Source: Escherichia coli
GTDB lineage: Bacteria > Pseudomonadota > Gammaproteobacteria > Enterobacterales > Enterobacteriaceae
Strand: one strand, 5' to 3'
Assembly (NCBI RefSeq): GCF_024223415.1
Contig: NZ_CP100500.1
DNA length: 64,000 nucleotides
The translations under genes and the position numbers were made by a program. Numbering within the stretch: the stretch's first letter is position 1; each line of letters begins with the position of its first letter. Below, in pieces: positions 18,483-21,485 of this stretch. The notes beneath the pieces are model-generated. The model was given only the letters and a program-made list of their open reading frames with translations. It was not told where the DNA came from and ran no database searches.

Positions 18483-19721
18483 ATGGCTGACACTCGCCCT
18501 GAACGTCGCTTTACGCGCATTGATCGTCTCCCGCCCTATGTTTTTAACATTACCGCTGAACTGAAAATGGCTGCGCGTCGGCGCGGCGAAGATATTATCG
18601 ATTTCAGTATGGGTAACCCGGACGGTGCGACTCCGCCGCATATCGTCGAAAAATTATGTACTGTGGCCCAGCGCCCGGACACGCATGGTTACTCCACTTC
18701 ACGCGGTATTCCGCGGCTACGTCGCGCCATTTCCCGCTGGTATCAGGATCGCTACGACGTTGAAATCGACCCGGAATCAGAAGCCATCGTCACTATTGGT
18801 TCGAAAGAGGGCCTGGCGCATCTGATGCTGGCGACACTGGATCACGGTGACACAGTGCTGGTGCCGAATCCAAGTTACCCCATTCATATTTACGGCGCGG
18901 TGATTGCCGGGGCTCAGGTACGCTCAGTGCCGCTGGTGGAAGGTGTCGATTTCTTCAATGAACTGGAGCGCGCCATTCGCGAAAGTTATCCGAAACCGAA
19001 GATGATGATCCTCGGCTTCCCGTCGAACCCAACCGCGCAATGCGTGGAACTGGAGTTCTTCGAAAAGGTTGTGGCGCTGGCGAAACGCTACGATGTGCTG
19101 GTGGTCCATGACCTGGCCTATGCGGACATCGTCTACGATGGCTGGAAAGCGCCGTCAATCATGCAGGTGCCAGGTGCACGCGATGTGGCGGTCGAGTTCT
19201 TTACGCTGTCGAAAAGCTACAACATGGCGGGCTGGCGTATCGGCTTTATGGTTGGCAACAAAATGCTGGTCAGCGCCCTGGCACGTATTAAAAGCTATCA
19301 CGATTACGGCACCTTTACGCCGTTGCAGGTGGCGGCGATTGCGGCACTCGAGGGCGATCAACAGTGCGTGCGCGACATTGCCGAACAGTACAAACGCCGC
19401 CGTGATGTATTGGTTAAAGGGCTGCATGAAGCGGGCTGGATGGTCGAAATGCCGAAGGCTTCGATGTATGTCTGGGCGAAAATACCGGAACCGTATGCTG
19501 CCATGGGCTCGCTGGAATTTGCCAAGAAATTGCTTAACGAAGCGAAGGTCTGTGTCTCTCCGGGGATTGGCTTTGGCGACTACGGTGATACGCATGTGCG
19601 CTTTGCACTGATTGAAAACCGCGACCGTATTCGTCAGGCGATTCGTGGGATTAAAGCGATGTTCCGTGCCGACGGTTTACTACCCGCCAGCAGCAAACAT
19701 ATTCACGAAAACGCGGAATAA
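18483..19721 (+). CDS. alaC: Glutamate-pyruvate aminotransferase AlaC (YfdZ)
   Basis: 412-aa class-I aminotransferase starting [23 protein letters not shown], with the PLP-lysine region [12 protein letters not shown]. Confidence 0.9.
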
Positions 19722-19740
19722 ACACCGACCTCAGAAATGC

Positions 19741-19770
19741 AAACAGGAGCCTGATGGCTCCTGTTTTTCA
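19741..19770. terminator. Rho-independent terminator after alaC
   Basis: Hairpin AAACAGGAGCC-TGAT-GGCTCCTGTTT followed by TTT; may also terminate ypdK from the other side. Confidence 0.65.
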
Positions 19771-19785
19771 TTGCACAGTTTGCTT

Positions 19786-19857
19786 TTAGATCATCAGGGC
19801 AAAAGTACCGGCCCAAACGATGACCATAAAAGAAATGCCCATAAAGAAATATTTCAC
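19786..19857 (-). CDS. ypdK: Small membrane protein YpdK (23 aa)
   Basis: Minus-strand reading GTG AAA TAT TTC TTT ATG GGC ... ATG ATC TAA gives (M)KYFFMGISFMVIVWAGTFALMI, which I recall as YpdK. GGAGAG lies 7 nt upstream of the GTG. Absent from the supplied ORF track. Confidence 0.55.
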   Translation of the reverse strand: MKYFFMGISFMVIVWAGTFALMI

Positions 19858-20212
19858 TTTACATCTCTCCGCGTAATTGCTGTTACGCCTGAATGACTTC
19901 ATTACACCTGATACAGTGAGTTGACACCGGGCAAAACGACCTTAAAAGTCCTGTATTTTACCGTGGGCATCACCCCAGAATTCTGAGCTAAACTGCTCGA
20001 GACGGCGCTAATGTACGCCTAAAACTGAAACGAGACAAGAGGCATTTTCTTATTTACTTTTAGTAACTTACAGGTGTCTCATATCGGCGACAGTTTAATT
20101 TCTGACGGTAATAATTAGAGATTCAGCGAAGGAAAAAACCTTAAGAAAAAAGCCATAAAAACCATGAGGTTATTATGGCTTATGTGAGGAGGTAAAGAGT
20201 CAGAGCAGTTTG

Positions 20213-21133
20213 TTAAATGTATAACGACGATTCTCCCACCGGGCGCGTTTTAAAGCGACGGTGGATCCAGAGGTACTGCTCCGGTGCGCGCATGATCTCT
20301 TTCTCGATAATCTTGTTCATATAGGCAGCGGCTTGATTTTCATCTGCCGGGTAGCCTTCCATCTCTGGGGTGATGAACAAACGATATCCGCTGTAATCCG
20401 CTTTTCTTACCATCGTTACGGTCAACATGGCTGCGCCAGAGAGACGGGAGAGAACATAGGTGCCATTGGTTGTGGCGACATTTTCTACCGCAAAGAACGG
20501 CGCGAAGGAGCTGCCTTTACGACCATAATCCTGATCGGGAGCAAACCATACCGCTTCACCTTTCTTCAGTGCACTGACAATGCCGCGCAGATTATTTCTG
20601 CCGATCATCGCTTTGTTAGAGCGCATGCGACCACGGGTCTGCACCCATTCCATCAGCTGATTATTATGTGGACGATAGGTAGCCATCATTGGCTGACAAA
20701 GTCCCATCACGCGGCCGCCCAGTTCCAGCGACATAAAATGGACGCCGACAACCATTACGCCGCGATTTTGCATTTGTGCGCGTTTAAGGTTATCCAGCCC
20801 TTCAACATCAAACCATTTACGTACGCGACTGTCGGGCCAGAACCACGCCATGCCGGTTTCTACCAACGCCATGCCGAGTGAACGAAAGTTTTCGGCAATC
20901 ATCTTCTCGCGTTCTTCCGCAGAATGCTGCGGGAAGCAAAGTTCCAGGTTTTTACGGGCGATAGATTCACGCCGTTTCAGGAATGGTCGCGCCATTGCGC
21001 CAATACGCGTGCCGAGAAAGCAGAGAACAGGATAAGGAAGCTGTACCCAAAGCCAGAGTACACCAAGCCCAAACCATGTGAGCCAGTAGCGAGGATGCAT
21101 AAACTCGCGGGAAAATTTGCATTGTGGAAACAT
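20213..21133 (-). CDS. lpxP: Cold-induced lipid A palmitoleoyltransferase LpxP
   Basis: ORF 20213..21199; LpxL/LpxP-family acyltransferase. The 306-aa protein from internal Met MFPQCKFSREFMHPRYWLTW matches LpxP, and the gene sits in the lpxP position next to alaC. Confidence 0.85.
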   Translation of the reverse strand: MFPQCKFSREFMHPRYWLTWFGLGVLWLWVQLPYPVLCFLGTRIGAMARPFLKRRESIARKNLELCFPQHSAEEREKMIAENFRSLGMALVETGMAWFWPDSRVRKWFDVEGLDNLKRAQMQNRGVMVVGVHFMSLELGGRVMGLCQPMMATYRPHNNQLMEWVQTRGRMRSNKAMIGRNNLRGIVSALKKGEAVWFAPDQDYGRKGSSFAPFFAVENVATTNGTYVLSRLSGAAMLTVTMVRKADYSGYRLFITPEMEGYPADENQAAAYMNKIIEKEIMRAPEQYLWIHRRFKTRPVGESSLYI

Positions 21134-21485
21134 AGTTACCTTCTGTAGATACGAATTGTTGTATCGCAGAAGATTCCATGTCGACAGCGGTACACTCAAT
21201 TGATTAGGCCATCATGTACGACAATGGTTCCTGTAAAGAGTGTAAAGACTAGTCAGGACATAACCACGAGGAGCATGAATGCGGTATCTGTACTTTATCA
21301 CTCGCTGACTGCTTTCAGCTACTGATTATTAATCGTGCAAAGTAAATATTTTTCCGTACACAACAGTCTTGCATTTAACATGCTGTTTTCATTGATGCTT
21401 AGCAAAAATTGCCAGAGGTTAAGGATTGTCTTACTATTAAAGTGACTGAAGTTACAGGTTTTTTAGCGCGGCAGGAGGTTGAGCT

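Follow-up and report, generated by a model that had tools for sequence, protein, structure and literature searches.

The ypdK locus and its surroundings

On the minus strand of the window, by which we mean the whole 64,000-nt stretch of Escherichia coli DNA that was analysed, positions 19786-19857 read GTG-KYFFMGISFMVIVWAGTFALMI-TAA, an open reading frame of 23 codons with the full translation VKYFFMGISFMVIVWAGTFALMI*. The codons run GTG AAA TAT TTC TTT ATG GGC ... ATG ATC TAA, with the start codon GTG at 19857-19855, 22 further codons, and the stop codon TAA at 19788-19786; the product, MKYFFMGISFMVIVWAGTFALMI, is predicted to form a single transmembrane helix. A Shine-Dalgarno (SD) sequence, GGAGAG, at 19865-19870 on the same strand is separated from the GTG by 7 nt (19864-19858). 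The alaC ORF, on the plus strand at 18483-19721, converges with this frame, with 64 nt between the two stop codons. A sequence-only reading of the window, made without database searches, had described a 23-codon hydrophobic ORF on the minus strand at 19786-19857, with a GTG start, GGAGAG 7 nt before it and a position downstream of alaC. The translation agreed with this exactly, the SD motif could be read from the sequence at 19870-19865, and the ORF lay 64 nt beyond the alaC stop.

The locus is ypdK, a gene already known and annotated in E. coli, whose product is a very small membrane protein with a single predicted helix. A 701-bp query taken around it matched, at 95-100% identity, 5422 of the 5426 complete E. 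coli genomes, with a median of one place per genome, and ypdK was annotated beneath the match in all 20 records sampled across the ranking of those matches. Over the same 701 bp the locus was 100% identical to that of E. coli strain DSM 103246. In this identical strain and in K-12 DH1 the RefSeq CDS "ypdK, membrane protein YpdK" (WP_010723117.1), at 2687-2758 in the coordinates of loci L001 and L002, corresponds exactly to 19786-19857 of the window; as it ends at exactly 19857, the RefSeq start is the GTG. The NCBIfam equivalog for YpdK, NF033437, scored 57.5 bits against a cutoff of 30 (E = 9.4e-16) in a full-length alignment, with YpdK residues 1-23 on profile positions 1-23 of 23, and the exact 23-aa sequence carries the name YpdK in both UniRef and NCBI (UniRef n = 262, Enterobacteriaceae, at least 1000 contigs). 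Set beside K-12 YpdK (WP_010723117.1, NF033437), the 23-aa sequence, the GTG start and the position convergent to alaC were identical and no difference was seen, the two being one gene in two E. coli strains. The sequence-only reading had named the ORF as YpdK and had proposed comparison with the annotated protein as a check; the RefSeq CDS, with the same coordinates, the same start and the same protein, and the NF033437 score bear the name out. Its remark that the ORF track had missed the gene also holds, the gene being below the lister's default 60-aa threshold, and so does its more general point that length-thresholded tracks hide small proteins: here ypdK was hidden and a longer, spurious antisense ORF was shown.

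Between the stop codons of alaC and ypdK, at 19741-19766, lies a GC-rich hairpin with an 11-bp stem (AAACAGGAGCC / GGCTCCTGTTT), a 4-nt loop and flanking A- and T-runs, which folds on both strands with a z-score of about -3.1. Each of the 78 alaC-anchored loci described below has a stem here of 7 bp or more, 4 or more of them G-C, in 38 differing arm sequences that all still pair, and on this evidence the hairpin is a predicted bidirectional intrinsic terminator, conserved and common to both genes. The ypdK transcript would end at this hairpin, which would also serve convergent alaC. A pattern scanner called neither the terminator nor the promoter of ypdK, both of which were established by folding and comparison; it missed the terminator because the stem absorbs part of the T-run. 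ypdK never parts from alaC, probably because the terminator is shared.

The upstream side of ypdK is variable. lpxP adjoins ypdK in 19 of the 78 loci, and other upstream neighbours include an MFS transporter, dipeptidase-like and hutH-like genes, a TetR-type regulator and an MCP, among others, which makes ypdK a stand-alone unit. Co-transcription or a functional link with lpxP was considered and rejected, since the two are adjacent in those 19 loci only and the promoter-like block described below travels with ypdK regardless. A rearrangement hotspot lies upstream of ypdK, holding unrelated genes in other genera; in Citrobacter (L005-L011) an extra gene of about 218 aa lies between ypdK and lpxP, and a report on an O26:H11 strain places an inserted stx2a prophage in the "mlaA-ypdK intergenic region" (PMC6667211). 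The lister extends lpxP (20213-21199, minus strand) to a TTG start, giving 328 aa, and RefSeq gives it 306 aa, with the start MFPQCKF, at 20213-21133. A 2025 study of RNA regulatory switches mentions lpxP repeatedly (PMC13271884), and the title of a companion preprint names thermometers too.

Conservation of the reading frame and the choice of start codon

Conservation was assessed in 80 loci from species-representative genomes, which were picked by similarity to the neighbouring AlaC protein and not via ypdK because selection on ypdK itself was to be avoided. The loci, all with at least 90% AlaC identity, represent about 30 genera from the Enterobacteriaceae and Erwiniaceae and were searched for YpdK-like frames by a BLOSUM62 scan of all six frames. 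In 78 of the 80 loci a YpdK-like frame followed alaC immediately, on the strand opposite to it, and the two loci that lacked it are contigs ending 53 and 159 nt after alaC; ypdK is thereby syntenic across both families. In all 78 informative loci the start codon was GTG, and in all of them GGAG ended 7-10 nt before it. The frame was 23 codons long in 58 loci and 24 codons long in a further 19, and was free of indels in 77 of the 78. The remaining locus, from Candidatus Pantoea haifensis (L078:4293-4366), has the ypdK frame broken by a frameshift after codon 10, and may be either a pseudogene or an assembly error.

Across the 68 distinct 69-nt blocks in this set, the ypdK frame had a pS of 0.53 and a pN of 0.136, and its pN/pS of 0.26 was the lowest of the six frames; synonymous changes were found, for example, in codons 3-4 (TAT/TAC and TTC/TTT). 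This substitution pattern points clearly to purifying selection at the protein level, far beyond what chance would give. Loss of the frame in relatives was the observation that the sequence-only reading had named as counting against a gene here; frame, GTG and SD were present in 78/78 informative loci.

The longest ORF over the interval in this window lies on the other strand, a 94-aa frame at 19612-19896 (plus) that starts with TTG inside alaC, in a different frame from alaC, and is the codon-aligned antisense of ypdK. Its length is what would recommend it as the real gene, with the minus-strand frame as its shadow. Against this, its frame had a pN/pS of 1.6 and a stop inside the ypdK overlap in 34 of the 68 distinct orthologous sequences; it spans ypdK without a stop in only 40 of 78 loci, its stop-to-stop length varies from 11 to 108 codons, and it would have to run through the terminator hairpin. 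Its product matched no NCBIfam or Pfam family. That it is open is to be expected anyway, because the antisense of a frame rich in Phe, Ile, Val and Met seldom holds stops. These comparative data already refute the 94-aa ORF as a gene, to a point where we would attach next to no probability to it, in keeping with the earlier judgement that it was most likely spurious.

Two other overlapping frames were also rejected as genes. The antisense frame offset by one had a pN/pS of 0.41 but no ORF with a start codon in the window, and its low ratio is a shadow of ypdK, with which it shares its wobble positions. The +2 sense frame over ypdK (19703-19816, minus strand) was stop-free in 68/68 distinct sequences, but had a pN/pS of 2.5 and is open by composition; in Citrobacter (L005:3529-4383) it grows into a 284-aa ORF antisense to alaC.

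The assignment of the start codon deserves more attention, as the sequence-only reading overlooked that in E. coli the GTG frame stays open upstream to an ATG. When run at a 20-aa threshold the ORF lister gives ypdK as a 38-aa ORF at 19786-19902, because it takes the first in-frame start, this ATG. The extension, at 19858-19902 on the minus strand up to the ATG at 19902-19900, lies outside the conserved gene. Several hundred E. coli and Shigella records have the 38-aa protein from ATG 19902, and if this were the true product it would account for the open frame in E. coli and for the 38-39 aa cluster members present in NCBI and UniRef, ATG being also a stronger initiator than GTG. The comparative evidence argues strongly for the shorter form, however. 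In 43 of 78 loci an in-frame stop precedes the GTG by at most 2 codons, usually the TGA of a conserved GATGA, and no other in-frame ATG, GTG or TTG precedes the GTG in 50 of 78. The 15 upstream codons are not conserved; the sole SD-like sequence for the ATG, AGGTG, is 2 nt from it, whereas GGAG is at a canonical distance from the GTG; and RefSeq and NCBIfam both take the 23-aa form.

The pentamer between the SD and the GTG (about 19859-19865, minus strand) indicates how the longer frame arose. It reads GATGA with at least 90% conservation, and its TGA is the in-frame stop in most genera; Escherichia has GATGT, in which TGA has become TGT, leaving the frame open up to ATG 19902. The extension is therefore lineage-specific and unconserved, and the 38-aa ATG-initiated version is annotated only in E. 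coli and Shigella records. On the cross-genus sequence data the 38-aa form is best regarded as an Escherichia-specific artefact, with very little probability of being the true product, and the comparison settles the predicted start as GTG and the predicted length as 23 aa. Initiation at the internal Met6 is likewise unlikely, as K2 and Y3 are invariant despite synonymous changes and GGAG is more than 20 nt from that ATG. The Escherichia GATGT also creates an out-of-frame ATG-TAA start-stop.

A promoter-like block and a predicted structured leader RNA

A putative sigma-70 promoter of ypdK was found at 20010-20064 on the minus strand, consisting of an UP-like A/T-rich tract (about 20064-20044), a -35 hexamer TTGTCT (20038-20033), a 17-nt spacer, a -10 hexamer TACATT (20015-20010) and a GC-rich discriminator, AGCGCCG. 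Of the 78 loci, 50 carry a block with the consensus A/T-rich tract, CTTGTc, 17-nt spacer, TACATT and AGCGCCG, lying 128-167 nt before the GTG whatever the upstream gene. The -10 block served as the search anchor for this comparison and its invariance is therefore circular; in addition to it, CTTG was found at the fixed 17-nt spacing and the A-tract was conserved. The scanner made no promoter call because only 8 of 12 hexamer positions match the consensus. We infer from this a sigma-70 promoter, complete with UP-like element and GC-rich discriminator. A conserved TGTAAGT motif was also seen about 25 nt upstream of the -35 hexamer, and the AGCGCCG discriminator resembles those of stringently controlled promoters.

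Transcription from this conserved block, about 150 nt upstream of the gene, would produce a structured leader. The predicted ypdK 5' leader, with its 5' end placed from the putative promoter, is about 146 nt long (19858-20003, minus strand). Its first element is a hairpin at the 5' terminus (about 20002-19982). A long-range helix follows (about 19977-19917), whose arms, 19977-19968 and about 19926-19917, enclose an inner stem-loop, and next to the SD stands a hairpin, GCGTAA...TTACGC (19888-19871), with arms at 19888-19883 and 19876-19871, whose end directly adjoins that motif. The same elements recur when leaders from different genera are folded individually. When 48 leaders were aligned, the GCGGAG of the SD region was invariant or nearly so, and the RNAalifold consensus held two helices with compensatory changes in 13 of 15 pairs. 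A four-helix model of the leader was 74.1% paired, compared with 38-49% in slid controls, and its covariation score of 0.248 exceeded the controls (at most 0.104) and was reached by 0 of 500 shuffles. Of the leader helices, the strongest support goes to the long-range one and to the hairpin beside the SD.

A covariance model built from these leaders (R1) recovered the element across most of the Enterobacteriaceae among the alaC-anchored loci, including 20 loci outside its training set, such as those of Buttiauxella, Cedecea, Shimwellia and Mangrovibacter; these 20 leaders were 74.5% paired, compared with 36-47% when slid, a value that leans towards structure because the alignment was fitted by the model. 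In the 64,000-nt window R1 found one copy. The R1 search did not recover the leader in Pantoea, Mixta or Erwinia, although the ypdK ORF is present in these genera. In the interval 19400-20400, on both strands, no Rfam 15 family reached its gathering threshold, and the two weak hits, to a plastid 3'UTR family and a snoRNA family, are chance matches. The ypdK leader thus appears, from alignment and folding, to form a conserved and apparently undescribed structure. Part of it varies: in E. coli SCPM-O-B-8794 (L003:4360-4487) and in Pseudocitrobacter (L013, L015 and L016) 33-40 nt are gone from inside the long-range helix while its arms are kept, and the insert therefore appears to be dispensable.

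Two further ideas about the leader were tried and rejected. Sequestration of the SD by codons 3-5, as in an RNA thermometer, gave 88.7% pairing but zero covariation, because each side is conserved for another reason, and so is unsupported. The palindrome CTCAGAATTCTGAG, considered as a protein-binding site or hairpin, retained only AATT as invariant, and its flanks lose their symmetry.

The ompA-type stabilising 5' untranslated region is a known comparison for leaders that bear hairpins. The ypdK leader is like it in being more than 100 nt long, in having a hairpin a few nt from its predicted 5' end, and in having another hairpin shortly before a ribosome-binding site that is left exposed. It differs in that its sequence is unrelated, it adds a long-range helix with a variable and sometimes deleted insert, and its 5' end and its stabilising effect are predictions. 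The 5'-terminal and SD-adjacent hairpins of ypdK would most likely stabilise a short mRNA and keep its ribosome-binding site exposed. A more ambitious proposal, in our view on the doubtful side, is that the leader, transcribed from a promoter whose GC-rich discriminator is rRNA-like, is an undescribed Enterobacteriaceae RNA element that might control stability or translation in response to a signal, such as growth rate through ppGpp, temperature or a ligand, or might belong to a dual-function RNA.

Taken further, the same evidence could mean that a structured regulatory RNA is the primary product of the locus and the ORF a secondary feature; such an RNA might be dual-function, like SgrS/SgrT, or a cis-acting leader sensor. 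The leader is twice the length of the ORF, has helices supported by covariation, and comes with its own conserved promoter-like block and terminator, while the peptide is without a known function. The ORF, however, is under clear purifying selection at the protein level and has an invariant start and SD, so the peptide is not incidental. One E. coli strain and Pseudocitrobacter have lost the inside of the long-range helix, and the leader is unrecovered in Pantoea, Mixta and Erwinia, which retain the ORF, so that the RNA element is more dispensable than the peptide. With no Rfam family match and no evidence of base-pairing targets, we think it improbable that the RNA is the primary product, and favour a protein-coding gene with a structured leader.

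The YpdK peptide, its expression and a proposed role

YpdK consists of Met-Lys followed by 21 uncharged and mostly hydrophobic residues. Its GRAVY, calculated from the sequence, is 1.73, rising to 1.99 for the uncharged residues 3-23, and Lys2 is the sole charged residue. Among 33 distinct orthologues, which are 23-24 residues long (19 are one residue longer, mostly with a terminal Glu), no variation was seen at K2, Y3, M6, G7, S9, G17, T18, F19 and M22 and hardly any at W15 and L21; the other positions swap among Ile, Val, Leu, Phe and Met. Conservation along the helix in this set had no clean 100-degree periodicity. Searches with YpdK returned no PDB chain at E values up to 10 and no Pfam family.

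Evidence for expression came from the literature. The sequence-only reading had proposed ribosome profiling as a check, and the occupancy it looked for is on record: Supplementary Table S1 of PMC12350097 lists ypdK in its "Ribo-ret only" column, reporting initiating ribosomes on the gene in plain LB growth. In the comparison table of the same paper YpdK is undetected by PIRT-seq fusions and by mass spectrometry (PMC12350097), which is to be expected for a 23-residue hydrophobic peptide. PMC3009722 counts ypdK among the 18 small ORFs of Hemm et al. 2008 (PMID 19121005) and terms its product a putative single-transmembrane peptide, and a tiling-array study describes a UV-responsive transcript that partly overlaps ypdK. 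The expression evidence for ypdK is confined to the Ribo-RET listing and a tagged-protein report. The searchable literature yielded no phenotype or reported function for YpdK, and its remaining mentions, as a machine-learning attention score in Klebsiella and as an stx-phage insertion site, carry no functional information.

Short hydrophobic peptides behind long structured leaders are typical of type I toxin mRNAs, and it is natural to ask whether YpdK is such a peptide, comparable to Ibs, TisB, DinQ or ShoB, with a leader that restrains translation and a product that damages the membrane when overproduced. The ypdK mRNA does share with tisB, dinQ, shoB and zorO a very short, extremely hydrophobic peptide and a long structured 5' leader, and convergent alaC could supply an antisense RNA by read-through. 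Type I toxins have a patchy distribution, however, and are often duplicated, whereas ypdK is a core gene, in single copy and in synteny throughout two bacterial families, present in the 5422 of 5426 E. coli genomes noted above. The conserved helices supported by covariation leave the SD unpaired, and the sole possible pairing that would occlude it is without covariation. A strong terminator separates ypdK from alaC in 78/78 loci, no match to a known antitoxin sRNA family in Rfam was found in 19400-20400, and initiating ribosomes are reported in plain LB growth. A type I toxin nature of YpdK is unlikely, and we would give it only a slim chance.

The role we favour, by analogy, is that of a regulatory membrane microprotein. 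Known examples of this class in bacteria include AcrZ, KdpF, CydX, MgrB, MgtS and PmrR, and of these AcrZ, KdpF, CydX, MgrB and MgtS bind and modulate larger membrane proteins. Like them, YpdK has fewer than 50 residues, a single predicted transmembrane helix, and conserved small or polar residues in that helix, suggesting that it packs against a partner. Several of these microproteins have genes inside or beside the partner's operon, or belong to a defined regulon, whereas ypdK stands alone: no partner gene was co-encoded with it in the 78 loci, and its sole constant neighbour, convergent alaC, encodes a soluble aminotransferase on the opposite strand. Such genetic linkage, which ypdK lacks, is common among these microproteins but not obligatory.

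In the mechanism we propose, translation would begin at GTG 19857, by means of the GGAG 7-10 nt upstream, and yield a 23-residue, almost wholly hydrophobic helix. Lys2 would be cytoplasmic, with the helix spanning the inner membrane and the C-terminus in the periplasm. Invariant small and polar residues inside a transmembrane helix suggest a specific helix-packing surface, and G7, S9, G17 and T18, together with Y3, M6, W15, F19 and M22, might form it. Such a surface is the reason for favouring the partner-binding model, in which YpdK may bind and modulate a larger inner-membrane protein. Nothing contradicts the identity or the coding nature of the gene, and the partner-binding role is suggested by the conserved residues and the analogy. 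Taken as a whole, it seems very probable that ypdK is a stand-alone enteric gene for a GTG-started 23-residue peptide, with a structured leader and a helix that would modulate a partner.

ypdK has carried an annotation since 2008 and NCBI's pipeline calls it as a matter of routine, so that for the gene itself little changes; the new point appears to be its conserved structured leader RNA. The case illustrates that a reader of raw sequence can recover a genuine 23-codon gene of a kind that length-thresholded ORF tracks conceal, displaying a longer spurious antisense ORF instead. It also settles the GTG start and the 23-aa product against the 38-aa ATG form carried by several hundred E. coli and Shigella records. 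The invariant surface of G7, S9, G17 and T18, the conserved leader and the putative promoter provide concrete handles for experiments on this small membrane protein.
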